A stretch of DNA of 64,000 nucleotides from an uncultured Armatimonadia bacterium (GTDB taxonomy: Bacteria; Armatimonadota; Zipacnadia; Zipacnadales; UBA11051): NCBI GenBank assembly GCA_964390495.1, contig CAYMIN010000009.1:6155-70154 (forward strand), read 5' to 3'. The notes beneath the pieces were generated by a model that was not told the origin of the DNA, searched no databases, and saw nothing but the letters and a program-made list of their open reading frames with translations. A program made the position numbers and the translations under genes. Positions 1 to 15,776 of the stretch are shown here, piece after piece. Within the stretch, counting starts at the first letter, position 1, and every line of letters begins with the position of its first letter.

Positions 1-330
1 CGCAAGAGCCAATTCTTCATGAAAGATGAGATCGCGGTCAATGAGGATACGGTGCCGTACGCGGAGATGGTCCGGCGGGCGGCGGCTAAGCAACCTTTCC
101 TTGACACCGACCATACCCTGACCCATTTCCGCGAGCTGTGGAACTCCGACTTACTGCCCCTGACGGTTCCGGCGACCGCCGGCGGCATCGGCCAGGAGCA
201 GAAGATGCTGGATAGATGCGAAGAGCGCTGGCGGGCCAATGTCGAGAAATGGGTGCCGCCGGAGATTGACGAGGACAAGCTCAAGGCCCTGACGAAGCTG
301 CAGGAGCGGGCCGAAAAGGAGTTCCTGTAG
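1..330 (+). CDS. 5'-truncated CDS; C-terminal ~109 aa of an MttB-superfamily (trimethylamine/glycine-betaine:corrinoid) methyltransferase-like protein
   Basis: Frame 1 is open from window position 1 (RKSQFF upstream of the first Met). The tail ...RWRANVEKWVPPEIDEDKLKAL..ERAEKEF resembles C-termini of non-Pyl MttB/MtgB family proteins. Assignment by recollection of family C-termini only. Confidence 0.45.
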   Translation, partial: RKSQFFMKDEIAVNEDTVPYAEMVRRAAAKQPFLDTDHTLTHFRELWNSDLLPLTVPATAGGIGQEQKMLDRCEERWRANVEKWVPPEIDEDKLKALTKLQERAEKEFL

Positions 331-344
331 GCTCGGAGCTTAAC

Positions 345-1190
345 ATGGAGGTGATCGGACCGACCATGGAAACCGAGAAGCTGGAGGAGTATCAGGAGCT
401 GGCGACCAAGATCCGCGCCCACTGCCTGCACATGACCCATCGCGGCATGAGCGGGCACCTGGGCAGCATGTTGTCCATGGCCGACCTGCTGGCGGTGCTG
501 TACACCAGTATCCTGCAGGTGGACCCGCAGAACCCCGACTGGGACGAGCGCGACCGCTTCGTGCTCAGCAAGGGCCACGGTGGCGCGGCTGTCTATGCGG
601 TGCTGGCGGAGAAGGGCTTCTTCCCGATGGAGTGGCTGAATACCTACTACCTCGACGACGGCAAGCTGTCCGGCCACATCAGCCACCACGTCCCGGGGGT
701 GGAGTTCTCCACCGGATCGCTGGGCCATGGGCTGCCGGTGGCCGTCGGCATGGCACTGGCGGCGCGTAATGACGGCAAGCGGCATCGCATTTTTTGCCTG
801 ATGAGCGACGGAGACTGTAACGAGGGCTCGACCTGGGAGGCGCTGATGTTCGCCGCCCACCACCGGTTGGACAACCTCATAGTGATCGTGGACTACAATC
901 GCGTCCAGGCGCTGGGCAAGATGGAAAATGTCATCGAGATGGAGCCGTTTGCGCCCAAGCTGCATCTCTTCGGCTGGAGCGTGCGAGGCATTGACGGGCA
1001 TGATTACGAGGCTATCGAGACGACGCTGTCGGATCTGCCGTTCGAGCCGGGCAAGCCCTCATGGTTGCTGGCCAGCACCACCAAATGCAAGGGCATCAGT
1101 CGGCTGGAGAACACGGTCGGCAGTCACTACGGCTGTGTGAACGATGACGAACTGGCGGAGGCGCTGGCCGAATTGGGGGTGTCAGAATGA
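345..1190 (+). CDS. transketolase, N-terminal (TPP-binding) subunit of a split transketolase
   Basis: SKGHGGAAVYAVLAEKG and GSLGHGLPVAVGMA motifs. Stop overlaps the start of the next gene (ATGA). Confidence 0.85.
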   Translation: MEVIGPTMETEKLEEYQELATKIRAHCLHMTHRGMSGHLGSMLSMADLLAVLYTSILQVDPQNPDWDERDRFVLSKGHGGAAVYAVLAEKGFFPMEWLNTYYLDDGKLSGHISHHVPGVEFSTGSLGHGLPVAVGMALAARNDGKRHRIFCLMSDGDCNEGSTWEALMFAAHHRLDNLIVIVDYNRVQALGKMENVIEMEPFAPKLHLFGWSVRGIDGHDYEAIETTLSDLPFEPGKPSWLLASTTKCKGISRLENTVGSHYGCVNDDELAEALAELGVSE

Positions 1191-2113
1191 GAAGCGCATT
1201 CAACGAAGAGCTGCTCAAGATCGCCGCACAAGATGACCGCATCTACATGGTGCTGGCCGACATCGGCTATGGCGAGATCGAGCCGTTCGCGGAGGCCTTT
1301 CCCGACCGCTTCTACAACTGTGGGGTGGCCGAGCAGAACATGACCGGCGTCGCCTGCGGTCTGGCTATGGAAGGCAAGATCGCCATCACCTACTCGATCG
1401 CCAACTTCCCGACCCTGCGATGCCTGGAGCAGATTCGCAACGATGTCTGCTACCACGATCAGAACGTCAAGATCGTCATCATCGGCGGCGGACTGGCATA
1501 CGGCTCGCTGGGGGTGTCCCACCATTCCACCGAGGACATCGCCATCATGCGGTCGCTGCCGGACTGTGTGGTGGTGTGCCCGGCGGATATCCAAGAAGCC
1601 AGAGCCGCGACCCATGCCATGATCGAGCATCAGGGGGCCTTCTACTACCGCTGCGGCTATAAGAAGGAGCCCGACCTGCACCAAGGCCAGATTGATTTCC
1701 GCCTCGGCGAAGCGATCCAGGTCTCCGACGGCTCGGATGTTACGCTGATAGGGACCGGCACCGTGACCTACCGGGCCTGGCAGGCGGCGGAACTGCTGGC
1801 CGGCGAGGGCATCAAGGCCCGCGTAATCAGCATGCACACCGTCAAGCCGATAGACCGCGAGGCCATCGTTACCGCCGCCCGGCAGACCGGGGCAATCGTC
1901 ACCGTCGAGGAGCACAATATCTGCGGCGGTCTCGGCGGCGCAGTCGCTGAGGTCATCGCCGAGGCCGGAATCGGCATCCGCTTCAAGATGATTGCGCTGC
2001 CGGACCAGTATGTCCACATCGTCGGGACCCACGAATGGCTGCTGGACTACTACGGCTTCTCGCCCCAGGGCATCGCGAACATGGTGCAGGACTTGTTGGC
2101 GAGCGGAAACTAA
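1187..2113 (+). CDS. transketolase, C-terminal (pyrimidine-binding/C-terminal domain) subunit
   Basis: 4-bp overlap with the upstream subunit. Typical transketolase C-terminal half: FPDRFYNCGVAEQNMTGVA ... KPID. Confidence 0.85.
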   Translation: MRSAFNEELLKIAAQDDRIYMVLADIGYGEIEPFAEAFPDRFYNCGVAEQNMTGVACGLAMEGKIAITYSIANFPTLRCLEQIRNDVCYHDQNVKIVIIGGGLAYGSLGVSHHSTEDIAIMRSLPDCVVVCPADIQEARAATHAMIEHQGAFYYRCGYKKEPDLHQGQIDFRLGEAIQVSDGSDVTLIGTGTVTYRAWQAAELLAGEGIKARVISMHTVKPIDREAIVTAARQTGAIVTVEEHNICGGLGGAVAEVIAEAGIGIRFKMIALPDQYVHIVGTHEWLLDYYGFSPQGIANMVQDLLASGN

Positions 2114-2142
2114 TGGGTACTACATCCCAACGACCACATCCC

Positions 2143-2210
2143 CGACTGCCGCGTGGCTCGGGCTTCCAGCCCGAGGCCGTGCGCAGACGCTAGCGTCGGC
2201 GTGAGAGGAT
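2143..2210 (+). repeat. conserved ~67-nt leader element upstream of E1 alpha, related to the TTCCAGCCCGA repeat family
   Basis: Near-identical to 3206-3272 (actgccgcg..gggc.t.ccagcccgaggc.gtgcgcagacg...cgtcggc.tgagagga). Hairpin ctcgggc-ttcca-gcccgag. Palindrome GACGCTAGCGTC. Confidence 0.6.
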
Positions 2211-2224
2211 AATTCAAAGGAACC

Positions 2225-3196
2225 ATGAAACCGACTGAAGAGCAAATGAAAGCAATGCTGCGGACGATGCTAACCATCCGCGGCTTCGAGGCGACCGCCC
2301 GCGCGCTCTATACGGCTAACTGGGAGAGCGGCAACTTTTTGGGCGCGCTGCATTCTTACGAAGGCCAGGAGGCCGTCGCCACCGGCGCGTGCGCCTGCCT
2401 GAGGCAGGACGACTATGTCTTCAGCACCCATCGCGGCCACGGGCACTTCATCGCCAAGGGTGGGGACATCAAGGCAATGTTCGCCGAGCTACTCGGCAAG
2501 GAAGCCGGCTGCAGCCGCGGGCGCGGCGGCTCGATGCACATGTTCGACCCCGGAAAAGGTCTGATGGGCGGCAACGGCATTGTGGGCGGCGGGATTCCCC
2601 TGGCCCTCGGACCCGCCTTCGCCGCCAACTACCTAGGTAGTGACCAGGTCACCGTCACCTTCTTCGGTGACGGCGCCTCCAGCCAGGGCGTATTTCATGA
2701 GTCGTTCAACTTGGCGGCGCTCTGGGACCTGCCCTTGATCTTCGTCTGCGAGAACAACCGCTATGCCGTGGGTACGCCGGCCTCTCAAGGCATTTCGGTG
2801 CCTAACCTATCGGTTCGCGCCGCCGGCTACGGCTGCCCTGGAGTGACGGTGGATGGCGACGACCCGGTGGCCGTCTATGAGGCGGTCAGTGAGGCCATCG
2901 CCCACGCCCGCGCAGGTAACGGCCCCAGCCTCGTCGAGGCCGTGACCCACCGGCATAGCACACACTGTATGGTTATGCGCGAAACTCGCGAAGAGCCGGA
3001 ACTGGACAAAATGAAGGAGTATGACCCCATCCCCCGCTTCGAGCAGCGCCTGCAGGAAAGCGGCATCATCGGGGCCGACGAACTGACGCAACTCAAAGAG
3101 GAAGTGAGCCAACTCATCGAGGCGGCCGTGGCCTTCGCTGAAAACGCCGCCTTCCCTGATCCTGCGACGGTGGCCGATGGTCTGTGGGTAGGCTAG
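2225..3196 (+). CDS. 2-oxoacid (pyruvate/acetoin-type) dehydrogenase E1 component alpha subunit, TPP-dependent
   Basis: E1 alpha motifs HRGHGH, GGNGIVGGGIPLALG and FFGDGASSQG. AAAGGA RBS 4-9 nt upstream of the ATG. Confidence 0.85.
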   Translation: MKPTEEQMKAMLRTMLTIRGFEATARALYTANWESGNFLGALHSYEGQEAVATGACACLRQDDYVFSTHRGHGHFIAKGGDIKAMFAELLGKEAGCSRGRGGSMHMFDPGKGLMGGNGIVGGGIPLALGPAFAANYLGSDQVTVTFFGDGASSQGVFHESFNLAALWDLPLIFVCENNRYAVGTPASQGISVPNLSVRAAGYGCPGVTVDGDDPVAVYEAVSEAIAHARAGNGPSLVEAVTHRHSTHCMVMRETREEPELDKMKEYDPIPRFEQRLQESGIIGADELTQLKEEVSQLIEAAVAFAENAAFPDPATVADGLWVG

Positions 3197-3205
3197 GCGG
3201 GGCCC

Positions 3206-3272
3206 GAACTGCCGCGCACCCGGGCCTGCCAGCCCGAGGCAGTGCGCAGACGACATCGTCGGCATGAGAGGA
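3206..3272 (+). repeat. second copy of the conserved leader element, upstream of E1 beta
   Basis: Aligns to 2143-2210. Palindrome GACGA-CA-TCGTC carries compensatory changes relative to copy 1. Confidence 0.6.
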
Positions 3273-4259
3273 GAACTTAGAGCATTGGCAAAGACGCGAC
3301 AGGTTGTGTTCGCCCGAGCGCTCAATGAGGCGCTCCGTGAGGAGTTCGAGCGCGATGACAGCGTCTTCCTGGTCGGCGAGGAGGTCGGCGGGATCTTTGG
3401 TGTCACCAGGGGTCTGGACCGGCGCTTTGGTGAAAAGCGGGTGCGCTGCACCCCGATCTCGGAGGCGGCCTTCACCGGACTGGCCGTCGGCGCGGCGATG
3501 GTCGGCCTCCGGCCCATCGTCGAGATCATGTACCTCGACTTCGTCACCGTTTGCTGGGACCAGATCGCCAACCAGGCGGCCAAGCTGCGGTATATGTCCG
3601 GCGGCCAGATCAGCCTGCCCCTGGTAATTCGCGGCCAGCAGGGCAACCTCACCCGCGAGGCCGCCCAACATTCCCAACAGATCGAGGGCTGGTGCGCCCA
3701 AGTACCGGGGCTCAAGGTCGTGATGCCGGCCACCGTCGAGGACGCCAAGGGCCTCCTCAAGTCTGCCATTAGGGATGACAATCCGGTCATATTCGTCGAG
3801 CATCGCGGCCTCTATGACCTCAAGGGGCCTATGCCCAAAGGCGAGTACACCACCCCGCTCGGTGTGGCCAAGGTCCACCGCGAAGGCACCGATATCACCG
3901 TTGTCGCCACATCCCTAGCCTTGCAGAAGGCACTGGCAGCGGCGGAAGCCCTCGCCGATGAGATCAGCGTGGAGGTGGTGGACCCGCGCACACTGGTGCC
4001 GCTAGATACGGAGACGATTCTGCAATCGGTACGCAAGACCGGCCGGCTGCTGGTGGCTCACGACGCCCCGGTGCGGCTGGGCTTCGGAGCCGAAGTCGTG
4101 CGCGCGGTTACCGAAGAGGCCTTCGCAGCTCTGCAGACAGCACCTCGTGTAGTCGGCGGAACCAATCTGCCGATGCCGTATAGCTCGGTGCTGGAGGACG
4201 CTTGCATCCCCAGCGAAGATGACATCACACAAGCTATCCGACAGGTGGTGAAGAGTTAG
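3264..4259 (+). CDS. 2-oxoacid dehydrogenase E1 component beta subunit
   Basis: E1 beta / transketolase-like pyrimidine and C-terminal domains (ALNEAL.EE, FLVGEEVG ... ). Start ambiguous: ATG at 3264 or in-frame TTG at 3285, with GAGAGGAG RBS at ~3266-3273. The aminotransferase start abuts the stop codon. Confidence 0.8.
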   Translation: MRGELRALAKTRQVVFARALNEALREEFERDDSVFLVGEEVGGIFGVTRGLDRRFGEKRVRCTPISEAAFTGLAVGAAMVGLRPIVEIMYLDFVTVCWDQIANQAAKLRYMSGGQISLPLVIRGQQGNLTREAAQHSQQIEGWCAQVPGLKVVMPATVEDAKGLLKSAIRDDNPVIFVEHRGLYDLKGPMPKGEYTTPLGVAKVHREGTDITVVATSLALQKALAAAEALADEISVEVVDPRTLVPLDTETILQSVRKTGRLLVAHDAPVRLGFGAEVVRAVTEEAFAALQTAPRVVGGTNLPMPYSSVLEDACIPSEDDITQAIRQVVKS

Positions 4260-5618
4260 ATGAGAAGCCATGATGAGTTGGTGGAGGCGGCTCGCAAGCA
4301 CGTCTGGCTGCATTTCGCGCATTACGACGATATTGAGAAGCGGCCTAAGATCTTCGTGCGCGGCGAGGGGATGTATCTATGGGACGATGAGGGCAACAAG
4401 TACCTGGATACCTTCGCCTCGCTGCTGACTACTATCTGCGGCCATCACCGCCCCGAAGTGCATGAAGCGGTGCAGAAGCAGATGGAGCAGCTTGAGTTCT
4501 TCCCGAATTACCATGATTGCTACACCATCCCCTCCATCGAGCTGGCCGAGAAGTTGGCCGAGATCATGCCGGGCGACCTCTCTGTCGCTTTCTTCACGGG
4601 CGGCGGCTCGGAAGCCAACGAAAGCGCTATGAAGATGGCCCGCCAGTACTTCTGGGAGCAGGGCCAGCGCTCCCGCACCGGCATCCTGGCCAAACGTTTC
4701 AGCTACACCGGCGCTACTATGGGCACGATGTCGGCCACCGGTATCCCCTGGTTCTGGGAGACCTTCCAGCCGCGCATGCCCGGCTACGGCTTTTTCAACC
4801 CGGAATGGTACTACCATCGCGAGCTGGGCCTCGCTGAGGAGCAAGCCGGCAAGATCGCCCTGCAAGACCTGGAGGAACTCGTGGAGTTTGAGGGGCCGGA
4901 ATCTATTGCCGCCTTGATTATGGATCCGGTTTCCGGCTCCAACACCGGCTATTGGGTGCCCTCGGCCGCCTTCATGCAGGGCGTCCGCGAGCTATGTGAC
5001 AAACACGGCATCCTCTTGATCTTCGACGAAATCCAAGTCGGCTTCGGCAAGAGCGGCAAATGGTTCTGCTGCGAGCACTGGGACGTGGTGCCCGACATCA
5101 TGACCCTGGGCAAGGGCTTCTCCGGCGGCTATCTACCTCTCGCAGCGGCGGTAACCACCCAGAAGATCGCCGAGGTCTTCCGCAAGCCTGATGCGGAGTT
5201 CCGCCACGGCTTCACCTTCGGCGGCCATACCACCGCGTGCGCCGCAACTTTGGCCAATATCGAGATTATCGAGCGCGAAAACCTCGTGGACAGGGCCGCC
5301 GAGATGGGTACCTACCTGCGCGAAAAGCTGGAGGCGCTATACAAGTACCCCATCGTCGGCCACGTGCGCGGCATCGGCCTGCTGCTGGCCCTTGAGCTAC
5401 TCGAGGACCGCAAGACCTGGAAGAAGCTGGAGCCGGAAGGCGAGATCGGCGCCTGGGTGCGCGACCGCTGCTACGAGCTGGGCATGATCCTGCGCAACAA
5501 CGACGACATCTTGGTCTTTGCACCCTCCTTGACCATCACCAAAGACGAAGTTGACTACATGGTCGGCCTCACCGAGCAAGCGCTCGCAGAGGCGTGTGAG
5601 AAGTTCGGCAAAGGTTAG
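4260..5618 (+). CDS. class-III (omega-type) PLP-dependent aminotransferase
   Basis: LWDDEGNKYLD and FDEIQVGFGKSG motifs, with the PLP-lysine region (TLGKG). Confidence 0.8.
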   Translation: MRSHDELVEAARKHVWLHFAHYDDIEKRPKIFVRGEGMYLWDDEGNKYLDTFASLLTTICGHHRPEVHEAVQKQMEQLEFFPNYHDCYTIPSIELAEKLAEIMPGDLSVAFFTGGGSEANESAMKMARQYFWEQGQRSRTGILAKRFSYTGATMGTMSATGIPWFWETFQPRMPGYGFFNPEWYYHRELGLAEEQAGKIALQDLEELVEFEGPESIAALIMDPVSGSNTGYWVPSAAFMQGVRELCDKHGILLIFDEIQVGFGKSGKWFCCEHWDVVPDIMTLGKGFSGGYLPLAAAVTTQKIAEVFRKPDAEFRHGFTFGGHTTACAATLANIEIIERENLVDRAAEMGTYLREKLEALYKYPIVGHVRGIGLLLALELLEDRKTWKKLEPEGEIGAWVRDRCYELGMILRNNDDILVFAPSLTITKDEVDYMVGLTEQALAEACEKFGKG

Positions 5619-5625
5619 GGAGAAG

Positions 5626-6669
5626 ATGGCATACCCCACGGTTCTGCAGGACGTACAGACTTGCATTGACCTCGGCGTGCCCTCCCGGGTGCCGATTTTC
5701 CTCCTGGGTGAGGAGTTCGATGTCGAGCAGTATGATATTGACTATCGCACCTACATCACCAGCCCGGAGGATATGGTCAACTGCTGGGTGCAGGCCGTCG
5801 CGCGCTTCGACTATGACTGGATTCTGCTGCATCCCGACGACTACATCGAGTTCGAGCCGTTGGGCCTTGTGACGGCGGCAGATGAAAAGATCCCGCCATC
5901 GCCCATCGAGGAGTTGCCTGCAGATTACGACACTCTTAACAGCCTGGAAATACCCGATGCCCACAGCGCCGGGCGAATGCCGCATCATCTGGCCGGCCTG
6001 CAAGGCATCAAGGAGGCGATGGGCGACAGCATCTGCCTCGCGGGTCGCGTGGCGGCACCGTTCAGCTCGGTGTGCCTGCTTTACGGGGTGCAGGAAGCGC
6101 TGATGCTGATGATGACCGATCCGCAACTGTTCCGCGATACGGCCGAGTTCATGGCCGAATTGATGGTCTATTGGGCGCACGAGCAGATCAAGGCCGGCGC
6201 CGACGCCTTGTGGGTCGGGGATTGTGTGGCCTCATCGGGGTTCTTGTCGCCTGCGCACTACGAGGAGTTCGCCATGGCCGGAGCCGGCCGGGTCTGCGAT
6301 GCCATCAAAGACGCCGGCGCATGGGCGATCTACCACGGTGGCGAGCCCTCTCTGCCCCACCTCCAACTGGCGGCTCAGTTCCAGCCGAGTATGCTCAATG
6401 TGGGCGAAGACCTTGACCTGGCGGTCGCCAAACAAGCCCTAGGCGACCAAGTCTGTCTGTCCGGCAACCTCAACCCGATTCAGCTCTTCGAGGCCAAAGA
6501 CCTTGCACTGGTAGCAGAGGAGACGCTTCGAGTTATCGAGGCCGGCAAGCCGGGCGGCGGATATATCTTCAACAGCGGTGAGGGCGTGCCTCGGCAGACT
6601 GACCCCGAGATCATCGCCACGATGATGCAGGTGGCAAAGGAGCACTGCTGGTACGACCAGCAGGACTGA
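5626..6669 (+). CDS. uroporphyrinogen-decarboxylase (URO-D) family protein, MtaA/CmuA-like methylcobamide methyltransferase candidate
   Basis: URO-D fold signature spread over the length. Start placed at the ATG with an AGGGAGAAG RBS (MAYPTV...); the longer track ORF start is unlikely. Confidence 0.6.
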   Translation: MAYPTVLQDVQTCIDLGVPSRVPIFLLGEEFDVEQYDIDYRTYITSPEDMVNCWVQAVARFDYDWILLHPDDYIEFEPLGLVTAADEKIPPSPIEELPADYDTLNSLEIPDAHSAGRMPHHLAGLQGIKEAMGDSICLAGRVAAPFSSVCLLYGVQEALMLMMTDPQLFRDTAEFMAELMVYWAHEQIKAGADALWVGDCVASSGFLSPAHYEEFAMAGAGRVCDAIKDAGAWAIYHGGEPSLPHLQLAAQFQPSMLNVGEDLDLAVAKQALGDQVCLSGNLNPIQLFEAKDLALVAEETLRVIEAGKPGGGYIFNSGEGVPRQTDPEIIATMMQVAKEHCWYDQQD

Positions 6670-6674: not shown

Positions 6675-7754
6675 ATGCAGCAGCACAAGGATACGCTAAA
6701 CTGCGCTGTCGTCGGCTATGGCCGCTATCACGACTTCGGGCGGATGCACTGCCGCTGGATCAGCGCCTGCCAGGAACTCAACCTGGTCGCCGTTTGTGAT
6801 ATGGACCCACAGGCCCGCCAACGCGCCGGCGGCGATTTTCCCGATGCGCGCCTTTATGCTTCGGTCGCTGAGATGCTCGCCGATGACGACATTGACATGG
6901 TCAGCGTCGTCACTCCCCATTTCACCCATACCGAAATCGCCACCGACTGCTTGCGGGCCGGCAAGCATGTAATCGTCGAAAAAGCGATGGCTACTAGCGT
7001 AGCCGACTGTACGGCCATGATTGAGGCCGCCGAGCGCGCCGGCCGCAAGCTGGCGGTATTTCACAATCGGCGCCATGACGGCAACTACCGCGCCATTCAG
7101 CGAGTAATCGCCGATGGCACCATCGGTGAGGTGTTCCACGTCGAGTGCTCGGAGGAAAGCTACACCGAGCCGCAGCAGTGGTGGTATTCCGAGCCCGACA
7201 AGTCCGGCGGGGCGCTGTTCTACTGGGGCCCTCATGCGGTGGACTGGGTGCTACACCTGGTGCCGTCGAGGGTGGCCCGGGTCGTCGGCGCCACCCAGAG
7301 GCGCGTCTGGTCACACGTGGACATCGCCGACGAGGTGCGCGCCTATCTCTGGTTTGAGAACGACGCGACCGCCACTATCACCTTCTCCCGCATCGCCGCC
7401 ATCCGCAAGCCTTTGTGGCGGATACTGGGCACCAAGGGTGGCATCGAGGATTCCAAGGTCGGCGTCTGCGAGGGCAACTACATCCCCCATTACCAGGAGC
7501 TGCTGGTGGGCGATGCCGGTGAAGGCCAGATCCGTGTGGTGACTGTGGATGGCGAGGAGAAAAGCGAGACTCTGGTTGACTATCTGGCCTCGGATTGGCT
7601 GACGTATTACCAGGACATGGCCGCCGCGGTCTTGCGCGATCAGCCGCTCCCGGTCACGGGAGAAGAGGGACGCATGACGGTGGCGGTCATGGCTGCGGCG
7701 CAGGAGTCGGGCGACCAAGGCGGAGTCATCATCGAGATGAGTGACTATGAGTGA
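6675..7754 (+). CDS. Gfo/Idh/MocA family NAD(P)-dependent oxidoreductase
   Basis: N-terminal Rossmann VVGYGR..., conserved EKPMA-like motif (VEKAMA), and a C-terminal alpha/beta domain. Confidence 0.8.
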   Translation: MQQHKDTLNCAVVGYGRYHDFGRMHCRWISACQELNLVAVCDMDPQARQRAGGDFPDARLYASVAEMLADDDIDMVSVVTPHFTHTEIATDCLRAGKHVIVEKAMATSVADCTAMIEAAERAGRKLAVFHNRRHDGNYRAIQRVIADGTIGEVFHVECSEESYTEPQQWWYSEPDKSGGALFYWGPHAVDWVLHLVPSRVARVVGATQRRVWSHVDIADEVRAYLWFENDATATITFSRIAAIRKPLWRILGTKGGIEDSKVGVCEGNYIPHYQELLVGDAGEGQIRVVTVDGEEKSETLVDYLASDWLTYYQDMAAAVLRDQPLPVTGEEGRMTVAVMAAAQESGDQGGVIIEMSDYE

Positions 7755-8101: not shown

Positions 8102-9253
8102 ATGCGTGTAAGGCGCCTCATCATAGCGATATGGGTATTGGTATTGCTTTTCAGTGCCACCGCGGTGCTGGCCAGGCAGTGGTCTGAGCAGCGCGAGCAG
8201 GCCGTCGGTGCCGAAGTTGCCGAGCAGATCGAGAAGCAGTACAAGCTCTGGGAGGACGAGGCGAGCCAGAAGCAGGTCGAGGAAATCCTAGCCGAATTGG
8301 TGCCACACACCGACCGCCCGGATGTTGAGTATCTGGTGAAACTGCTGGACAGTGATGAGGTCAATGCCTGCAGCATACCCGGCGGCCGCATCTACGTGCA
8401 CCGAGGACTGATCGAGGAAGTCGAGTCCGTTGACGAGCTGGCCGCGGTAATGGCCCACGAGATTGCCCACAACTGCACTTATGACGCCATGGACCAGGCC
8501 GAGCGCAACCAGAAGCTATTCATCGGCGGGATCACGGCGGCGCTGGTGGCGATATTCGTCGGAGCCGACAGTAGCGAAATATCCGGCGTTCTGGCCGCCG
8601 GCTCGTATGTGCGCCAGGGGATTCTCAGCCGGTATTCCATTGACATGGAGCAGCGCGCTGACCTCAACGCCATCCGCTATCTGGCGGCTAGCAAGTACAA
8701 CCCCACCGGCCTGCTGACCTTTATGGAGCGGCTGCTGGCCCAGACCTACAAGACGGCGCGCCCCGACTACGGGATCTATGAGACCCACCCCCAGGCCACG
8801 GAGCGCTGCGCATATATCATCCAGGCCATCTATGACGCGGGGTTCGACATCAATCGGCGTGCGGTAACTAAGTGGGACCCGCCCAGCTTTGAGAGCATCG
8901 GCCCTGAAGAAACGCAGATAGACCGCCAAACAGCGCCGGCCAAGATATCACTGTGGGGCGAAGAGCTGGTCACCCTATACTATGCCGGCGAATATCCGGG
9001 CATTGACAAGCGCGCCGAGGCCATCTGCAAGCACCTCACGGAAGCGCTCGCGGCGGGCCTGGTGCTGTACCAGATAGACACTGCTGAGACTGACGGAACC
9101 TCTACGATCACGCTGCGGGGTCAGCCGATGATGAAAATCTATCCCGAGGACGTGCAATCAGAAGCAAGCTCACCCCAGGCTGTGGCCGACGGCATCGTCA
9201 GGGCGCTGGCCAGAGCCATGCACCGGGAGGAGCTGGCGCGGCGGTATCACTAG
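8102..9253 (+). CDS. membrane-anchored M48-family zinc metallopeptidase
   Basis: HEIAHN (HEXXH) and a downstream ETHPqatER motif. N-terminal hydrophobic anchor. GGAG RBS. Stop is immediately followed by the start of the lipoyl protein. Confidence 0.75.
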   Translation: MRVRRLIIAIWVLVLLFSATAVLARQWSEQREQAVGAEVAEQIEKQYKLWEDEASQKQVEEILAELVPHTDRPDVEYLVKLLDSDEVNACSIPGGRIYVHRGLIEEVESVDELAAVMAHEIAHNCTYDAMDQAERNQKLFIGGITAALVAIFVGADSSEISGVLAAGSYVRQGILSRYSIDMEQRADLNAIRYLAASKYNPTGLLTFMERLLAQTYKTARPDYGIYETHPQATERCAYIIQAIYDAGFDINRRAVTKWDPPSFESIGPEETQIDRQTAPAKISLWGEELVTLYYAGEYPGIDKRAEAICKHLTEALAAGLVLYQIDTAETDGTSTITLRGQPMMKIYPEDVQSEASSPQAVADGIVRALARAMHREELARRYH

Positions 9254-9760
9254 ATGGGCCAGCGCATCACCATCGAGAAGTGGGCCGAGAACCTCGAAGA
9301 AGTCACCCTTGCCCGCTGGCTGAAGGCCGAGGGCGACCACATCGTTGCCGGCGAAGTGCTGTGCGAGATCATCACCGATAAGGCCACCTTCGAGTACACC
9401 GCTGAGCAAGCCGGCACAATCGTCAGGATCTACGCCGCCGAGCGCAGTACCGTACCCGTCGGCTATATCATAGCCTTCCTCGCCACTGCCGGCGAGCAGC
9501 CGGACCCCGACATCGAGACCCACAATGAGAAGCTGCTTGCCGATAACCAACAGCAGGCGCAACTGGACCTCGACGATATTCTCTCAGCCGCCGGTGGAAA
9601 ACCTGCTCGACCGCGCGCAACCGCGGCCGCACGACGGCTGGCGCGCCAACTTCAGATTGACCTGCAGCAGGTCGCCGACTGGCTCAGTCCGCCCACCGAA
9701 CTGATTACCGAAGACCACGTGCAAGCATACTTGAGCGACAAAGGGAGCAGCGGTGATTGA
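9254..9760 (+). CDS. stand-alone lipoyl-attachment domain + peripheral-subunit (E3/E1) binding domain protein; E2 without a catalytic acyltransferase domain
   Basis: Lipoyl-lysine motif [11 protein letters not shown]. Ala/Pro-rich linker, then a PSBD-like segment [19 protein letters not shown]. Only 168 aa, with no CAT-like catalytic core (no DHRxxDG). Confidence 0.75.
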
Positions 9761-10499
9761 CCTAAGCGGCAAAGTGGCGCTGGTGACGGGTGGCTCGCGA
9801 GGCTTGGGCCGGGCCATCGCGGTACAGCTCGCCGAAGCCGGCGCGGAGGTTGCGGTCAATTACCTGCAGAACGCCGCAGCGGCTGAAGAGACCGGTCGCC
9901 TCATCACCGAATACGGACGCCGCTGCATTCTCTGCCAGGCGGACGTGAGCGACCGCGAGGCCGTCAAGGCGATGGTCGAGCAGGTTTCCCAGGAATTGGG
10001 CGGGCCGGATATCCTAGTCAACAACGCCGGCATCATCAGCGACCAGTTCCTCGCCTTCATGAAGCCGGAGCAGTGGGAGAGCGTCATTGCCACCTCCCTG
10101 ACCGGCGCCTTCAACTGCTGCCAGGCGGCCATGCGGCCGATGCTGAAAAAGCGCTGGGGTCGCATCGTCAATATCGCCTCTGATGCCGGCTTGATGGGCG
10201 ACTTGCGGCGCACCAACTACGCCGCCGCCAAGGGTGGTTTGATCGCCTTCACTAAGGCGCTGGCGCGTGAGGTTGTCGCCCAGGGCATTGTCGTCAATGC
10301 GGTGGCGCCGGGTGTCATCGAGACCGACCTGATCGCTGAGATGACCGACAAGCAGCGCGAGCAGATGTGCCAATTGATCCCAGCCGGTCGGTTCGGGCGG
10401 CCTGAAGAGGTCGCTCCCCTCGTGGCATTTCTGTGCTCGCAGCATGCCAATTACATCACCGGCCAGGTCCTCAGCGTTGACGGCGGCCTCCGCATGTAG
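9753..10499 (+). CDS. fabG: 3-oxoacyl-[ACP] reductase-like short-chain dehydrogenase (FabG family)
   Basis: GTG start with a [20 protein letters not shown] and NNAG motifs, YAAAK catalytic YxxxK. 8-bp overlap with the upstream gene. Confidence 0.8.
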
Positions 10500-10526
10500 C
10501 GCCTGAATCGGCTGTAATTCCCCGAC

Positions 10527-10555
10527 TTGCAAAGCCCACCTGAATCGTTTATATT
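10527..10555 (+). promoter_or_regulatory. sigma-70-like promoter candidate (TTGCAA-17 bp-TATATT) for the DUF47-pitA-fabF-KS-like-E1alpha transcript
   Basis: Hexamers read directly, with 17-nt spacing, inside the 213-bp gap upstream of the DUF47 gene. Confidence 0.45.
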
Positions 10556-10712
10556 GTGGGCGCGGATAGAAGTAATTCACCTCTACGATGGGATCGGATG
10601 CGTTACCGTAAACGTACATTCCCACGTACCGACCTGCCACTAGGCCTACCGCCACTTGCTATTGCTCCACTGTCACTTGCATCCAGCGACCTCAAGGGAA
10701 GGGACGGATATC

Positions 10713-11378
10713 ATGCCGGGGCGGAACCGTTTTCTTGACGGCCTGCAGCGGGTCATGCGTGCCTTCGCGCCGAGCGAAGAGAACTTCTTTGAGCTGTTCG
10801 AGGCTCTGGGCGACAAGGCCCTGGCGGCCGCCGAGTGCCTCGACGATGTCATGCAGAGGTTCCACCGTTTGCCGCTAGCTGTAGAGAGAATCGAGGACAT
10901 CGAGCACGAGGCCGACGAGATCGTCCACGAGGTAGTCAGGCGGCTCAACACCACCTTCGTCACCCCCGCCTTGTTCGACCGCGAGGACATCTACCGCGTT
11001 GCCGAACGCCTCGACGACATCATTGACCAAACCAAAGGCGCCATTGACCGCCTACAGCTTTTCAAGATTGAGAAGCCCACCGACAGGTGCAAAGAGCTGG
11101 TGAAAATCTTCGTGCAAGCGGCAGAGTGTCTGCAGAGCAACATGCACAACCTGGCCGGGCTCAAACCCACAGACTGCGAATACGTTGCCGAGGTCAACAC
11201 TCTGGAGAACCAGGCTGATGTGGTCAACCGGGCGGCCATGAGCGAGCTGTTCCAGTACGAAGGCGACCCCCGTCAGATCATGAAATGGCTGCAGATTTAC
11301 CAATTCATCGAAGAGGCGATTGATAGCTGCGAGGCGGCAGTCAATTTCGTCGAGGCAGTGGTGGTGAAGAATGCCTGA
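10713..11378 (+). CDS. DUF47 family protein (PhoU-like putative phosphate-transport regulator)
   Basis: Helical PhoU-like sequence. Conserved pairing with, and 8-bp overlap of, the downstream PiT transporter. Confidence 0.7.
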   Translation: MPGRNRFLDGLQRVMRAFAPSEENFFELFEALGDKALAAAECLDDVMQRFHRLPLAVERIEDIEHEADEIVHEVVRRLNTTFVTPALFDREDIYRVAERLDDIIDQTKGAIDRLQLFKIEKPTDRCKELVKIFVQAAECLQSNMHNLAGLKPTDCEYVAEVNTLENQADVVNRAAMSELFQYEGDPRQIMKWLQIYQFIEEAIDSCEAAVNFVEAVVVKNA

Positions 11379-12405
11379 CCTGCCGATCTGGGTCTGGGTG
11401 ACCGTCGCGGTGGCCCTGACCTTCGACTTCATGAACGGATTTCACGATACGGCCAACGCGATTGCCACTTCCGTGCTTACCCGGGCCTTGAGTATCCGTC
11501 AGGCGATTGTGTTCGCATCAGGCCTCAATTTCCTGGGTGCGGTGGTAAGCGTCAGGGTCGCCGCAACCATTGGCAAGGGCATCGTGGACCCGGCCGATAC
11601 CTCGCATACGGTAGTGCTGGCCGCTTTGCTCGGGGGCATTACTTGGCTGCTCATCACCTGGTATCTGGGCTTGCCGACGAGTTGCTCTCACGCTCTCGTT
11701 GGCGGAGTGATTGGAGCTGTACTGGCTGACCATACGACCCTTCAGGCCGGTGGCGGCATGCTGGGCTGGGGTGTTAACTACGGTGTGCTACAATACGCGG
11801 GGCTGACCAAGATATTCGTGTCTCTGCTACTGTCCCCGATATTCGGTGTGATCGTCGGTGTCGCGCTGATGATTACTCTGTTGCACATCTTCGGCCACTG
11901 CGCCCCGGCGGCGCTCAACCGCCATTTCAAGCGTTTCCAGATCATGTCCGCAGGCTTTATGGCCTTCAGCCACGGCTCCAACGACGCCCAGCAAGTCATG
12001 GGCATCATCACTCTTACACTGGTTGCGAGCGGAGCTCTAGGCACCTTTATAGTCCCCTTCTGGGTCAAGGTGTGCTCGGCCACTGCTATGGCTCTGGGCA
12101 CGGCCGCCGGCGGCTGGCGGATCATTAAAACAGTCGGCCGCAAGGTGATGGAACTGAAGCCGATCCACGGTTTTGCCGCCGAGACGGCTGCAGCCTCAGT
12201 CATCCAGTTCGCGACGCACTTCGGCGCTCCGGTCAGCACCACTCACGTCATCTCCACCGCCATAATGGGCGTGGGCCTATCTCACCGACTCACGGCGGTG
12301 AGATGGGGCGTAGTGGGGCAGATCGTCGGCGCTTGGATACTGACGCTCCCGATGTCTATGTTCTTCGGCGCGCTGGCTCACTGGATAATCCACAACTGGC
12401 TGTAA
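11371..12405 (+). CDS. pitA: PiT-family inorganic anion (phosphate/sulfate) transporter
   Basis: N-terminal FDFMNGFHDTANAIATSV and a repeated C-terminal GSNDAQ-type motif. Confidence 0.85.
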   Translation: MPDLPIWVWVTVAVALTFDFMNGFHDTANAIATSVLTRALSIRQAIVFASGLNFLGAVVSVRVAATIGKGIVDPADTSHTVVLAALLGGITWLLITWYLGLPTSCSHALVGGVIGAVLADHTTLQAGGGMLGWGVNYGVLQYAGLTKIFVSLLLSPIFGVIVGVALMITLLHIFGHCAPAALNRHFKRFQIMSAGFMAFSHGSNDAQQVMGIITLTLVASGALGTFIVPFWVKVCSATAMALGTAAGGWRIIKTVGRKVMELKPIHGFAAETAAASVIQFATHFGAPVSTTHVISTAIMGVGLSHRLTAVRWGVVGQIVGAWILTLPMSMFFGALAHWIIHNWL

Positions 12406-12428
12406 ACTCCGCACACAGGCGATGAGCG

Positions 12429-13655
12429 ATGCAGGCCAGGCTGTACCATGTTGCCATAACCGGGCTCGGGGTCGTCAGCCCTTTGGGCAGCGGCGCCAGT
12501 ACCCTCTGGGAGGGTTTGCTGGCCGGCTGTCGCGGTCTCACTAGCCTGACCAAATTCGACCCCACCGGCCTGCGCAACCAGAAGGCCGGCCAGGTTAATG
12601 ACTGGCAATTCGACCCCGCTGAATATGGCCTCCAGCAAGCGCCTGACGAGGCCACCCAGTTTCTGCTCGCTGCGGCGCACGAGGCGGTCGCCGATGCCGG
12701 TCTCGATGACCGTTTGCACCCAGGCGCGGAGCCTGTCGCGCAGGCAGGGGCAGTGCTGGGGACCAACTTCGGCGGCGCTGCTTCGTGGGAGAGCTACATC
12801 AACGGAGTACTGGTCGGCCGGCCCTCACCCACGGCTTTCGAGCAATTTAGCTTCCACGAGGCGCTATCCCTGCTATCCAGCAGCTTCGCCCTCAGTGGCC
12901 CCTGCAGCCAGCTCTCCATGGCCTGCGCCTCCGGAACTGCCGCTATCGGCTACGGAGCCGAGCTGATACGAACCGGCCAGGCCGAGCTGGTGCTGGTCGG
13001 CGGCTACGATGCCCTGGCTCCCAGTATTCTCAGCGGGCTAAGCCTACTCCGCACCATGACCGATGACGACCTCTATCCGTTTTCGGCCAACCGCAGTGGG
13101 ACCCTTTTCGGTGAGGGCGCGGGCGTGCTGGTGCTGGAGAACCTGCAGCGCGCCCACCAACGCCGCGTGCGCTGCTACGGCGAAGTCTTGGGGGCGTGGC
13201 AGAACAACAATGCTTACCACCTGACCGCCCCCGATGCCGGCGGTGCCGGTATGGCACGAGCCTTGCGGGGAGCGCTGCAGGTAGCGGGAATTGCCCCTGA
13301 GGACCTGGATCACATCAACGCCCACGGCACCGGGACAGAGTACCACGATGTGGCCGAGACCGAGGCGATCAAGGCCGTCCTCGGCCCGGCCGCTTACGAC
13401 ATAACCGTGGTGTCCATAAAGGGGGCTATCTCGCATCTGATGGGGGCAGCCGGGGCCGTCGAGGGTGTTGTGACAGCTCTAGCGCTCTTCCATCAGATGG
13501 TGCCGCCTACCACCAATTACGGCGATCCGGACCCGGCCTGTGACCTGGACTACGTTACCACCGGCGCGCGCCGCCAGCCTATCAAACACGCGGCCTCGCT
13601 CTCAGCCGGCATCGGCGGCGATAACGCGTGTGTGGTCCTGGGCCGGCTTATCTAG
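12429..13655 (+). CDS. fabF: beta-ketoacyl-[ACP] synthase II-like condensing enzyme (intact Cys-His-His triad)
   Basis: Active-site Cys in SMACASGTA, HGTGT present (INAHGTGTEYHD), and second His in SIKGAISHLMGAAG. Confidence 0.85.
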   Translation: MQARLYHVAITGLGVVSPLGSGASTLWEGLLAGCRGLTSLTKFDPTGLRNQKAGQVNDWQFDPAEYGLQQAPDEATQFLLAAAHEAVADAGLDDRLHPGAEPVAQAGAVLGTNFGGAASWESYINGVLVGRPSPTAFEQFSFHEALSLLSSSFALSGPCSQLSMACASGTAAIGYGAELIRTGQAELVLVGGYDALAPSILSGLSLLRTMTDDDLYPFSANRSGTLFGEGAGVLVLENLQRAHQRRVRCYGEVLGAWQNNNAYHLTAPDAGGAGMARALRGALQVAGIAPEDLDHINAHGTGTEYHDVAETEAIKAVLGPAAYDITVVSIKGAISHLMGAAGAVEGVVTALALFHQMVPPTTNYGDPDPACDLDYVTTGARRQPIKHAASLSAGIGGDNACVVLGRLI

Positions 13656-13659
13656 CAAC

Positions 13660-13766
13660 GCGTAGCTCGGCCTGCCCTGAGCTTGTCGAAGGACAGGTGA
13701 GAACGCGGTTCACCGCGTTCTCAGCTTCCAGCTCGAGGTCATTGCCGTGATTACACTGTGCCATTT
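13660..13766. repeat. long copy of a dispersed intergenic repeat element with two hairpins
   Basis: Aligns to 43974-44077 over ~105 nt, roughly 80% identical by eye. Hairpins cctgccc..ggacagg and gagaacgcgg-ttca-ccgcgttctc. Confidence 0.7.
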
Positions 13767-13794
13767 CACTCGGGGATAATCCAGACTACAGACT

Positions 13795-14799
13795 GTGAAA
13801 AACGCATCGTCTCAAAACCAGCGCATAGTCATCAGCGGAGCCGCACCGATTGCCTCCGTCGGCATCGGGCGCGAGGACTTCTTAGAGGGCCTGCGCGAAA
13901 ACCGCGCGGGCCTCGGCGCCTCGCAACGCCTGACTGATGCCGGCGGCTTCGCACAGGTGGCGGAGTGCCGCGACTTTGTGGTCGAGGACTATCTGGAGAG
14001 CAAGAAGACCTACCTCGACCGCTGCTCGGAGCTGGCGCTGGCGGCTGCGGCCCTGGCCTTCGCGGACGCCGGACTGGTCTGGTCGGAACTGGATGGCGAG
14101 CGGATCGGCCTATGCCTGGGCACCGCCTACGGCTGTCTCGAATCCATGACCAATCACACAGCGCGGGTGCAGGCCAAGGGCTTGCGTTTCGGCTCGCCGA
14201 TGATCTTCACCCACACAATGCCCAACTCACCCACGGCGCTGGTGGCCATCGAGTACGGTATCCACGGGCCGGCTGGGACCTTTTGCGCCGGCAGCATAGC
14301 GGCGGCCTGTGCGCTGGAGTTCGCCCTGCGCCGCCTCAAGAGCGGAGATGCCGACTTTGTACTGGCCGGCGGCTGTGAGGCACTGAGTGTCGCGCTGCTT
14401 GGCGGCCTGGGCGGCCCCGAGCGACTCGGGCCGGATTTCGTACCGGGTGAGGGCGCCTGCCTATTCGTCCTGGAGCGCATGCACACGGCAGCGGCCAGAG
14501 GTGCTGAGATGCTAGCCGAGATCGCCGCTGTCGGTCTGGCGGTGGCTACCGAAGCCAATCCCGACGCCGCTCTGGACGCCGCGTGCGCGCAAGCCGCTCT
14601 GACCGACAGGCCCGCGATATTCGCCCCGCCCGCCGCATACGGCCACACCTTCGGCACCTCAGTGGCTCTGGACATTTGTGCGGCACTCGGTAGTTTGAAA
14701 TCGGATGCGAGCTGCGATTGCATCGCCATAACCGGCCGCAGCGGCCTTACCGGCACTCATGCGCCGGCCGCTGCTGTCATCATCCGGAGCCTAACATGA
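13795..14799 (+). CDS. degenerate ketosynthase-like protein (KS partner/CLF-like); retains GHxxG His region but lacks the HGTGT motif
   Basis: KS N-terminal RIVISGAAPIASVGIG. Possible Cys in GPAGTFCAGS. No HGTGT, with ~25 residues missing before AAYGHTFGTS. 334 aa versus 408 aa for the FabF-like neighbour. Stop overlaps the start of the E1 alpha paralog. Confidence 0.65.
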   Translation: MKNASSQNQRIVISGAAPIASVGIGREDFLEGLRENRAGLGASQRLTDAGGFAQVAECRDFVVEDYLESKKTYLDRCSELALAAAALAFADAGLVWSELDGERIGLCLGTAYGCLESMTNHTARVQAKGLRFGSPMIFTHTMPNSPTALVAIEYGIHGPAGTFCAGSIAAACALEFALRRLKSGDADFVLAGGCEALSVALLGGLGGPERLGPDFVPGEGACLFVLERMHTAAARGAEMLAEIAAVGLAVATEANPDAALDAACAQAALTDRPAIFAPPAAYGHTFGTSVALDICAALGSLKSDASCDCIAITGRSGLTGTHAPAAAVIIRSLT

Positions 14800-15776
14800 G
14801 CTATCCAGCCAAGGAGTTAATCGCCCATTATCGGCTGATGGTCACCATCAGGGAGTTTGAGGAGGCTCTGGATGACCTCTTCAGTCAGGGACTAATCACC
14901 GGCACCGCGCACTTCTGCCGAGGCCAGGAAGCCTGTGCGGTGGGAGCCGTCGCGGCGCTGGAAGCCTCTGATTTGGTGACATCGAATCATCGCGGGCACG
15001 GCCATTTCATCGCCAAAGGCGCGGAACCGGGGCGGCTGATGGCTGAGCTGATGGGCAAGCGGGCCGGCTATTCCGGCGGGCGCGGCGGCTCCCAGCACAT
15101 GGCTGCCTTTGACCTCGGCTTCCTGGGCTCCAACGGAATAACTGCCGGTATGATACCGATCGCGACCGGGGCCGCAATGACCCAGAAGCTCAAGCAGACC
15201 GGCCGCGTCGTACTATGCTTCTTCGGCGACGGGGCTTGCGCTCAGGGCGCCTTTCACGAGGCGATCAACATGGGGGCGCTCTGGGAGCTGCCTATCGTCT
15301 ATTTCCTTGAGAACAATCTCTACGCAATGAGCACGCATGTCGGCGAGAATTTCAAGATCACGGAGCTCGTGCAGTTCGCTGACGCATACGGTCTGGCGGG
15401 GGTCAGCGTTGATGGCAATGACTACTTCGCAGTGCGAGCGACGGTCACTGAGGCTGTGAGCCTGGCCCGCTCCGGAGCCGGGCCGACGCTCATCGAGGCC
15501 CGCACCTACCGCATGTGCGGACACTCCAAGAGCGATGACTGCGAATACCGGTCTGATGAAGAAGAGCGAACCTGGGCGGCCCGGGACCCGCTGCTAGTCA
15601 TGAAAAGCCGGCTCATTGCCGACAGCATTATGGATGAAGCGACGGCGGCAGCAGCCGAGCAGCGAGCTGCCGACGATGTTGCAACGGCGATTGAGTTCGC
15701 CCGCCAAGCATCCGAACCTGACCCTGATACGCTCACCGAGGGGCTTTTCGCTGCTTCATACCTCAAGGCTCGGTAG
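14796..15776 (+). CDS. second 2-oxoacid dehydrogenase E1 alpha subunit paralog (TPP-dependent)
   Basis: HRGHGHFIAKG, GSNGITAGMIPIATG and FFGDGACAQG motifs. ATGA overlap with the KS-like gene. No cognate beta subunit downstream. Confidence 0.8.
   Translation: MSYPAKELIAHYRLMVTIREFEEALDDLFSQGLITGTAHFCRGQEACAVGAVAALEASDLVTSNHRGHGHFIAKGAEPGRLMAELMGKRAGYSGGRGGSQHMAAFDLGFLGSNGITAGMIPIATGAAMTQKLKQTGRVVLCFFGDGACAQGAFHEAINMGALWELPIVYFLENNLYAMSTHVGENFKITELVQFADAYGLAGVSVDGNDYFAVRATVTEAVSLARSGAGPTLIEARTYRMCGHSKSDDCEYRSDEEERTWAARDPLLVMKSRLIADSIMDEATAAAAEQRAADDVATAIEFARQASEPDPDTLTEGLFAASYLKAR

Follow-up and report, generated by a model that had tools for sequence, protein, structure and literature searches.

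We analyzed a window of 64,000 nucleotides of DNA from an uncultured Armatimonadia bacterium (contig CAYMIN010000009.1, positions 6,155 to 70,154), the first 15.8 kb of which are occupied by a run of 17 co-oriented genes on the + strand, as established from open reading frame (ORF) listings and Pfam/NCBIfam scans. A sequence-only reading had taken the whole run for one biosynthetic or catabolic module. Comparison with related genomes indicates that the run is very probably a mosaic, in which three or more evolutionary units follow one another head to tail within a same-strand stretch of about 35 kb, and that one of these units is a conserved gene cassette. As delineated by the comparisons, the units would be a left block (up to position 9253), a DUF47-PiT gene pair (10713-12405) and the cassette itself, which flanks that pair (9254-10499 and 12429-15776). 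The cassette codes for a lipoyl carrier (Lip), a FabG-type ketoreductase (KR), a ketosynthase (KS), a truncated KS-fold partner (dKS) and an E1 alpha subunit (E1alpha2). This predicted combination of a pyruvate dehydrogenase (PDH)-type E1, a core-less lipoyl carrier, a KS/chain length factor (CLF)-like pair and a ketoreductase is well supported as a conserved and so far undescribed gene association; our literature searches returned no description of a lipoyl, ketosynthase and E1 cassette, nor of such a cassette among Armatimonadota fatty-acid genes.

The synteny test was anchored on dKS, and the window proteins were mapped by tblastn onto 5 + 1 metagenome neighborhoods and 45 loci from species-representative genomes. 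The counts cover 46 Armatimonadota loci, with denominators limited to loci with enough sequence to judge. KS was found directly upstream of dKS at 42/42 loci, and an E1 alpha gene downstream of dKS at 32/38, followed by an E1 beta gene at 12/26. FabG and Lip were present upstream of dKS at 21 and 15 of 35 loci, respectively. Distant Armatimonadota retain only KS-dKS-E1a(-E1b), often with Lip-FabG, in otherwise unrelated surroundings. The full order E1b-AT-UROD-Gfo-MoaD-M48-Lip-FabG-(DUF47-PiT)-KS-dKS-E1a-BlaI-BlaR1, where AT stands for aminotransferase, was restricted to relatives with 57-78% dKS identity (L017, L022, L023 and L062). At two loci (L013 and L018), genes for ThiC, SurA, NadE and RsmI lie directly upstream of the M48 protease gene in place of the left half, showing that the left half is detachable. 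The DUF47-PiT pair is absent from L014, L020 and L021, all within the close family, which argues that it is an insertion. Co-occurrence in dozens of species-level genomes thus lends good support to the suggestion that the lipoyl protein goes with the KS pair and E1 alpha, but the claim of a single module is not supported, as the run as a whole is co-inherited only in close relatives and splits elsewhere.

Four dKS-like matches labeled Planctomycetales or Planctomycetota (L055, L056, L058 and L060) were dropped from the dKS family, as no KS or E1 alpha match lies beside them; in L055, the one locus of the four that was inspected, the match lies within a full-length 492-aa ORF. At L047, the region 12684-14990, between the cassette E1 alpha and E1 beta genes, holds two copies of an IS200-like transposase and duplicated ORFs without a Pfam match. 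These extra ORFs were rejected as cassette genes because they are IS200-like or have no Pfam match and all but one are confined to L047. Their presence indicates that the cassette tolerates insertions between its genes.

That all 16 to 17 genes constitute one translationally coupled pathway, either 2-oxoacid-primed lipid/polyketide or quaternary-amine catabolic, appears quite improbable to us. In its favor, the genes share one strand throughout, the complete order is kept in the four relatives named above (~57-78% dKS identity), and a shared Lip for the two E1 paralogs of the run is conceivable. Gaps of 0 to 8 bp or overlaps had been reported for the junctions. This is correct for many of them, the small junctions measuring -8, -8, -8, -4, -4, 0, 0, 5, 7, 14 and 23 nt, but not for the last two of these or for the larger gaps of 67, 88, 111, 139 and 213 nt, the 88-nt gap being reduced to 67 nt if E1 beta starts at the ATG at 3264. 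Gaps of at most 25 nt account for 12/16 junctions in the run and for 14/34 in the rest of the window (Fisher p=0.035), only a modest enrichment of tight spacing. Spacing is no evidence of a common pathway in any case, because the genes for an exported M48 protease and a phosphate transporter, both inside the run, abut their neighbors as closely as the metabolic genes do. Similarly, the same-strand orientation does not delimit a module, since the + strand series continues past the run to ~34.2 kb through unrelated genes, including those for a PKD protein, BlaI/BlaR1, NadD, LCP, RsfS, GT2, DegT, CitMHS and SPFH, as well as a 598-aa ORF (25089-26885) known from the ORF listing alone. A single pathway is further disfavored by the dissolution of the gene order outside the close family, by the absence of the left half beside the cassette in L013 and L018, by the occurrence of left-block genes elsewhere without KS or dKS, and by the lack of an accompanying corrinoid protein for the MttB-like and MtaA-like genes. 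The co-orientation noted by the sequence-only reading was correct, but its count of 16 genes was not, as it had overlooked the DUF47-PiT pair; all its other domain calls were borne out by the profile searches.

The first cassette gene (9254..9760) codes for Lip, a 168-aa protein composed of a lipoyl domain (PF00364) and a peripheral subunit-binding domain (PSBD; weak PF02817 match), with no E2 core. The Lip family comprises 224 proteins. Among the 120 listed, all but two are 160-237 aa long, almost every label names Armatimonadota, most have a recognized E3-binding domain besides the lipoyl domain, and an E2 core is missing throughout. The lipoyl-bearing lysine K43, in a TDKA/TEKV motif, does not vary in the family, which also conserves both PSBD helices. 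We rejected the possibility that Lip is a biotin carrier, as the motif is TDKA, typical of lipoyl domains, and not AMKM. The next gene (9753..10499) codes for the FabG-type 3-oxoacyl reductase, with a score of 297.7 bits against TIGR01830, whose cut-off is 297.75.

KS (12429..13655; PF00109 and PF02801) is FabF-like. Two family alignments show its residues Cys166, His299, Lys331 and His336 without exception (21/21 and 29/29 sequences), and its AlphaFold2 (AF2) model (pLDDT 87.5) has the FabF fold. Nevertheless, it scores 326 bits against the FabF equivalog model, whose cut-off is 494, and it has a sub-threshold NCBIfam match to AmcF (232 bits versus 325). Its best PDB sequence match was 9s5h, a KS heterodimer on which a literature search returned nothing relevant and which was not among the fold-search results.

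The downstream gene (13795..14799) codes for dKS, which matches PF00109 only and is ~80 residues shorter than KS. The position of the catalytic Cys is occupied by Ser in the window's family and by Asp, Ala or other residues elsewhere. The segment with the first His is deleted, whereas the second His aligns with a retained YGHTFGA motif. The AF2 model (pLDDT 92.4, pTM 0.93) is a confident, compact thiolase fold, and the top fold matches were the KS chain of the ishigamide KS/CLF complex, FabF proteins and both chains of the actinorhodin KS/CLF. We considered dKS as an active acyltransferase with a Ser nucleophile and rejected this, since the residue at the Cys position varies across the family. 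Two proteins of other Armatimonadota (P0216 and P0217; 709-711 aa) are natural single-chain KS-dKS fusions, with a KS match of 59% over residues 1-405 and a dKS match of 56% over residues 428-692. These fusions are strong indirect evidence that KS and dKS act as a heterodimer, and we predict that the two form a KS/CLF-like pair with a catalytically dead dKS.

Type II polyketide synthase (PKS) KS/CLF systems, such as Iga11/12 of ishigamide and AmcF-AmcG of cispentacin, likewise pair a Cys-His-His KS with an adjacent KS-fold partner devoid of the catalytic Cys, and the ishigamide and actinorhodin complexes are among the top fold matches of dKS. AmcF-AmcG, a KS with a motif-less partner, uses a 2-oxoacid-derived starter for a single extension (PMC10698177). 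The likeness to the cispentacin system extends to the sub-threshold match of KS to AmcF and to an acyl carrier protein (ACP) found next to the cassette in deeper lineages, whose best match is AmcB. However, dKS is ~80 residues shorter than a CLF, and the residue at its Cys position is S, D, A or others rather than the Gln of classical CLFs. Furthermore, the window locus has no cyclase, aromatase, adenylating loader or dedicated ACP, and no coupling of KS/CLF systems or of AmcF-AmcG to an E1alpha/beta and a lipoyl carrier has been described.

The last cassette gene (14796..15776; PF00676, 265 bits), which overlaps dKS by 4 nt, codes for E1alpha2, one of two E1 alpha paralogs in the run. The other, E1alpha1 (2225..3196; PF00676, 279.7 bits), belongs to the left block, where it is followed by an E1 beta gene (3285..4259; PF02779 and PF02780). 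The two E1 alphas are 40% identical to each other. The E1 alpha proteins encoded after dKS in relatives are 52-86% identical to E1alpha2 and 41-48% to E1alpha1, indicating that E1alpha2, and not E1alpha1, is the ortholog of the cassette E1 alpha. The cassette E1 betas are 58-98% identical among themselves versus 44-49% to the window E1 beta, which argues that the latter is the partner of E1alpha1 and a paralog of the cassette E1 beta. The cassette's own E1 beta gene thus appears to have been lost from the locus in the window's lineage, and no second E1 beta was found in the 64-kb window.

Among solved structures, both E1 alphas are nearest to PDH-type E1 alpha, the closest to E1alpha1 being a human-type PDH E1 alpha, and the GDG...NN motif for thiamine pyrophosphate (TPP) is present in both translations. 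Both E1 alphas and the E1 beta are of the PDH/acetoin heterotetramer type, and Lip, with its TDKA-lysine lipoyl domain and PSBD, resembles the N-terminal half of an E2. The run differs from PDH/acetoin complexes in that the E2 catalytic core (PF00198) and E3 are missing, the whole Lip family being core-less, and in that E1alpha2 has no adjacent E1 beta in the window's lineage. No E3, i.e., no pyridine-nucleotide-disulfide oxidoreductase domain, was detected in the 17 run genes and three downstream genes.

Extended forms of the cassette occur in deeper lineages. An AcpS gene is found directly upstream of FabG at eight loci (L043, L045, L046, L048, L053, L054, L057 and L061), in the order Lip-AcpS-FabG at L043. 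At eight loci (L025, L041, L043, L044, L045, L047, L049 and L051), E1 beta is followed by genes for a GT2 glycosyltransferase and an 87-aa ACP; three loci have both ACP and AcpS. The best NCBIfam match of this ACP is the cispentacin ACP AmcB (64 bits, cut-off 80). After the ACP gene, most of the eight loci have genes for hydr2_PEP-like and hydr1_PEP-like alpha/beta hydrolases and two or three GT4 glycosyltransferases, except that L043 has no hydrolase match and that the sequence retrieved for L025 shows no GT4. The succession of GT2, ACP, hydr2_PEP-like, hydr1_PEP-like and GT4 genes after the cassette in most of these distant loci recalls the ACP/hydrolase 1/hydrolase 2 set of exosortase-A (PEP-CTERM) systems. 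It differs from that set in that the hydrolases score 105 versus 203 and 136 versus 168 relative to the NCBIfam cut-offs, no exosortase was seen, and neither the window nor its close relatives have the corresponding genes. Orthologs of the cassette-type E1 beta, ACP, AcpS and GT2/hydrolase/GT4 genes were not found in the 64-kb window, and the GT2/ACP/hydrolase/GT4 set is also absent from the window's close relatives. Finally, the Fimbriimonadaceae-like loci L046, L048, L053, L054, L057 and L061 have AcpS-FabG-KS-dKS without E1 or Lip.

The gene content of the cassette, though not that of the whole run, fits the sequence-only proposal of a 2-oxoacid-primed lipid/polyketide-like process, and a mechanism can be outlined. 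The PDH-type E1 would decarboxylate a 2-oxoacid, for which pyruvate is the likeliest candidate with an E1 of this type, and would reductively acylate the lipoyl-lysine of Lip, docked on E1 through the PSBD. Because no E2 acyltransferase core is present, the acyl group may pass directly from the lipoyl arm to the KS/dKS heterodimer, which would condense it with malonyl-ACP. FabG would then reduce the condensation product to a 3-hydroxyacyl thioester. As the cassette includes neither a dehydratase nor an enoyl reductase, it would by itself stop at a short 3-hydroxyacyl unit. To judge from the GT2/ACP/hydrolase/GT4 neighbors in deeper lineages, this unit may serve to decorate a glycan or glycolipid. 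We put forward the hand-off from E1 through Lip to KS/dKS tentatively, as a possibility raised by the predicted functions of the proteins. Its most specific form is a starter hand-off independent of coenzyme A (CoA), in which the acyl-dihydrolipoyl arm primes the KS/CLF-like heterodimer, replacing both the E2 core and a FabH or acyltransferase loader, and the short 3-hydroxyacyl product decorates a glycan or lipid; that complete scenario is doubtful. Taken together, the mosaic run, the cassette and the proposed mechanism nonetheless make up the best explanation overall, which we regard as reasonably probable.

A close parallel in the literature is the supply of glycolicacyl-ACP by QncN/L/M in quinocarcin biosynthesis and by the homologous SclQ1-4. 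As summarized from an earlier study, a TPP enzyme, a lipoyl/acyltransferase protein and an ACP (QncN, QncL and QncM) deliver a C2 unit to the assembly line (PMC6335953). These systems resemble the proposed one in leading from a TPP-dependent E1/transketolase-type enzyme through a lipoyl group to a thiotemplate assembly line, and they are the only described case we found of lipoyl chemistry feeding a carrier-protein pathway. The window also has a split transketolase, but its genes belong to a separately inherited block. QncL/SclQ4 carries an E2-type acyltransferase domain whereas Lip has no catalytic domain, and delivery is to a dedicated ACP for a nonribosomal peptide synthetase rather than to a KS/CLF-like pair and a KR. 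The cassette E1 also differs in being of the PDH alpha/beta type. In neither the Qnc nor the Amc precedent does an alpha/beta E1 occur together with both a KS pair and a lipoyl protein that is a carrier only.

Several observations weigh against the proposed hand-off. We know of no described case in which an acyl group passes from lipoyl to KS, as predicted here. In the window's lineage, the cassette is devoid of its own E1 beta, ACP, AcpS, hydrolases and glycosyltransferases at the locus or within the 64 kb, and since its own E1 beta and a nearby ACP are missing, to operate in this organism it would have to draw on the E1 beta encoded upstream or on genes at other places in the genome. The absence of E1 alpha and Lip from the Fimbriimonadaceae-like loci indicates that KS/dKS can work without E1. 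Conversely, a Lip homolog with 41% identity is found at L142 (10001-10501), in a Planctomycetota-labeled bin, between KdsA-like (DAHP_synth_1) and LptD_N-like genes, with neither KS nor E1 nearby, so that Lip occurs there alone beside KdsA/Lpt-like genes, a case that is uninformative by itself. Lastly, FabG scores as an ordinary FabG, and the adjacency of AcpS fits housekeeping fatty-acid synthesis equally well.

In a different explanation, KS/dKS is the phylum's heterodimeric FabF-type elongating synthase working with FabG, E1 and Lip are parts of a normal pyruvate/acetoin dehydrogenase with an E2 core and E3 encoded at other loci, and the genes are neighbors through co-regulation of acetyl-CoA supply and fatty-acid synthesis. 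The FabG score barely under the equivalog cut-off, the position of AcpS, a phosphopantetheinyl transferase of the housekeeping type, directly upstream of FabG at eight loci, and the occurrence of AcpS-FabG-KS-dKS without E1 in Fimbriimonadaceae-like genomes are all consistent with such a role, as are the FabF-type fold and catalytic residues of KS and the very wide conservation of the cassette across the phylum. Yet KS scores far below the FabF cut-off, and FabF is normally a homodimer that needs no dead partner, so that the always-adjacent or fused dKS points to a specialized KS/CLF-type system. Pfam scans of the run and of L009-L015 and L061 showed no fabH, fabD, acpP, fabZ or fabI beside the cassette, an E2 core is absent from all 120 listed Lip relatives, and at eight loci the cassette runs on into the GT/ACP/hydrolase cluster. 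Anaerobes with the Wood-Ljungdahl pathway would generally not be expected to have a classical PDH complex, and we count this against the housekeeping explanation. Zipacnadia, the class to which one of the closest relatives of the window is assigned, are described as anaerobes from anoxic sediments with that pathway (PMC10290634). On balance, we consider a housekeeping role rather unlikely.

Alternatively, the reduced cassette of the window could be the decaying remnant of an ancestral Lip-AcpS-FabG-KS-dKS-E1a-E1b-GT2-ACP-hydrolase-GT4 cluster, without a product in this organism. The genes for E1 beta, ACP, AcpS, hydrolases and glycosyltransferases are indeed missing at the locus in the window and the close family, and the cassette is interrupted by DUF47-PiT and by repeat elements. 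However, all five retained genes are full length, and the Cys/His/Lys/His residues of KS, the lipoyl-Lys and the GDG...NN motif of E1alpha2 are intact. The same reduced set is kept in at least ten species-level relatives with 57-78% dKS identity, which argues for purifying selection and makes decay very unlikely.

The left block begins with an MttB-superfamily gene cut by the window edge (1..330; Pfam MTTB, 19.1 bits on the fragment). To complete it, we used the upstream flank from the 110-kb JGI metagenome contig Ga0180431_10000100, whose genes are identical to those on the 175-kb ENA contig k141_884206 and on JGI Ga0309772_1000071. On this longer contig, the start of the gene lies 1,149 nt upstream of the window's first position and 228 nt from a divergently transcribed HpcH/HpaI aldolase gene. 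The full product, a 492-aa MttB-family protein (L004, 8508-9986), scores 98.6 bits against TIGR02369, whose cut-off is 525. The MttB-like gene is followed by genes for the TPP-binding N-terminal subunit (345..1190; PF00456, 159 bits) and the pyrimidine-binding C-terminal subunit (1187..2113; PF02779 and PF02780) of a split transketolase, which overlap by 4 nt. After E1alpha1 and E1 beta come genes for a class-III (omega-type) aminotransferase (4260..5618; PF00202, 330 bits), under every NCBIfam equivalog cut-off, a URO-D/MtaA-like protein (5626..6669; PF01208, 173.9 bits), a Gfo/Idh/MocA oxidoreductase (6675..7754; PF01408, PF22725 and PF02894), a ThiS/MoaD-fold protein (7747..8034; PF02597, 31 bits) and an M48 metalloprotease (8102..9253; PF01435, 93.6 bits). 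The protease resembles BepA/LoiP (83.8 bits against a BepA-like NCBIfam model), and its translation starts with a hydrophobic signal or anchor sequence, as befits an exported protein. The MoaD-like protein ends in ...IVVTMLV. The sequence-only reading had rightly noted that its C-terminus is devoid of Gly-Gly; this holds for the orthologs in L014, L017, L020-L023 and L062, making a role as a sulfur carrier or ubiquitin-like modifier unlikely.

A metagenome scan anchored on E1alpha1 for the context of these genes returned L062, L064 and L070. The first, a close relative, has the order MttB-TKN-TKC-E1a1-E1b-AT-UROD-Gfo-MoaD-M48, where TKN and TKC are the transketolase subunits. L064 has MttB-AT-E1a-E1b at 35-60% identity, and L070 has AT, MttB, E1a, E1b, UROD and TKN at 40-73% identity, reordered and interleaved with GH3, GH116-like and 6-hairpin glycosidase-like genes. 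The contigs of L064 and L070 hold neither KS nor dKS. Upstream of the left block, the longer contig has three AGE-family (GlcNAc-2-epimerase-fold) genes and the HpcH aldolase gene. The left-block genes thus apparently form a recurring association of their own in a carbohydrate-processing context, and their most likely role, at low resolution, is the catabolism of a sugar-derived or amine substrate.

The presence of an MttB-family and a URO-D/MtaA-family protein in one run is reminiscent of MttB/MtaA corrinoid methyltransferase systems, and the host class is described as having the Wood-Ljungdahl pathway (PMC10290634). Nevertheless, the quaternary-amine pathway envisaged by the sequence-only reading finds little support. 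The two proteins are far under the family cut-offs, with the URO-D protein scoring 86-92 bits versus cut-offs of 235-244 for MtaA-type subfamily models and even lower on MtaA/MtbA equivalogs, the MtaA/CmuA and HemE models also being far below cut-off. Their genes are five genes apart, and Pfam scans detected no corrinoid/B12-binding protein among the run genes or directly upstream. In L070, moreover, the left-block counterparts sit among glycoside hydrolases.

The second unit, which occupies the space between FabG and KS, consists of genes for a DUF47/PhoU_div protein (10713..11378; PF01865, 80.3 bits) and a PiT/PHO4 inorganic phosphate transporter (11371..12405; PF01384, 310 bits). The genes overlap by 8 nt, and both products are full-length Pfam matches. 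With PhoU_div directly before the PHO4 permease, the pair is organized like other DUF47 (YkaA/PhoU_div)-PiT systems. It is an unremarkable transporter pair in itself, which part of the family has as an insertion after FabG and before KS.

Repeat elements had been reported in the larger gaps of the run, and our repeat search detected them in three of these. Two ~80-nt copies, at 2140..2219 and 3203..3282, are 78% identical to each other, and a third element (13649..13772), between KS and dKS, is related to a copy at 43963-44082; a further copy is at 45223-45252. The elements, ~80-120 nt long and GC-rich, with hairpin-like cores (...GGCTTCCAGCCCGAGGC...), are located between co-oriented genes and look like repetitive extragenic palindrome (REP)/miniature inverted-repeat transposable element (MITE)-type elements. 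Rfam models, applied at gathering thresholds to the entire window, had no match, so that neither the larger gaps nor the repeats are accounted for by a riboswitch or another known RNA. An internal promoter had also been proposed at ~10527. Promoter-like hexamers are present at 10527-10555 (9/12 match), but five such sites were found in the region versus 4.5 expected in shuffled sequences, and terminator counts likewise equaled the shuffled expectation; the site can therefore not be called an internal promoter.

Outside the run, a gene at 15936-19769 codes for a secreted-looking 1,277-aa PKD/CarboxypepD_reg protein with no NCBIfam match. It lies between E1alpha2 and BlaI/BlaR1 and is an insertion specific to this organism, as L014, L017 and L020-L023 pass straight from E1alpha2 to BlaI-BlaR1. 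Three tandem paralogous genes at 42881-46356 are spaced 1,140-1,256 nt from start to start and are 67-86% identical where their nucleotide sequences match. They are separated by copies of the intergenic repeat, and the product of the middle one, the sole paralog scanned, is an aldo/keto reductase (PF00248). On the - strand, at 34454-37944, a sulfatase gene adjoins that of a 669-aa DUF6785/DUF6784 protein.

Homologs of the most distinctive window proteins carry Armatimonadota labels, and the closest GTDB genomes, at 78% identity, are two metagenome-assembled genomes (MAGs), one unclassified and one assigned to 'Candidatus Zipacnadia', a class of Armatimonadota. In the compact, strand-biased genome of the window, co-orientation and overlapping stop and start codons do not delimit pathways. 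If the housekeeping explanation is true, KS/dKS would represent a phylum-specific heterodimeric FabF, still unusual but of narrower interest. If the proposed hand-off is true, the cassette would directly link the swinging lipoyl arm of 2-oxoacid dehydrogenases to thiolase-fold condensing enzymes, two machineries not known to connect. A compact system of five or six small soluble proteins would then provide a starter-unit route that bypasses acyl-CoA, and hence a new way to start a fatty-acid or polyketide chain.

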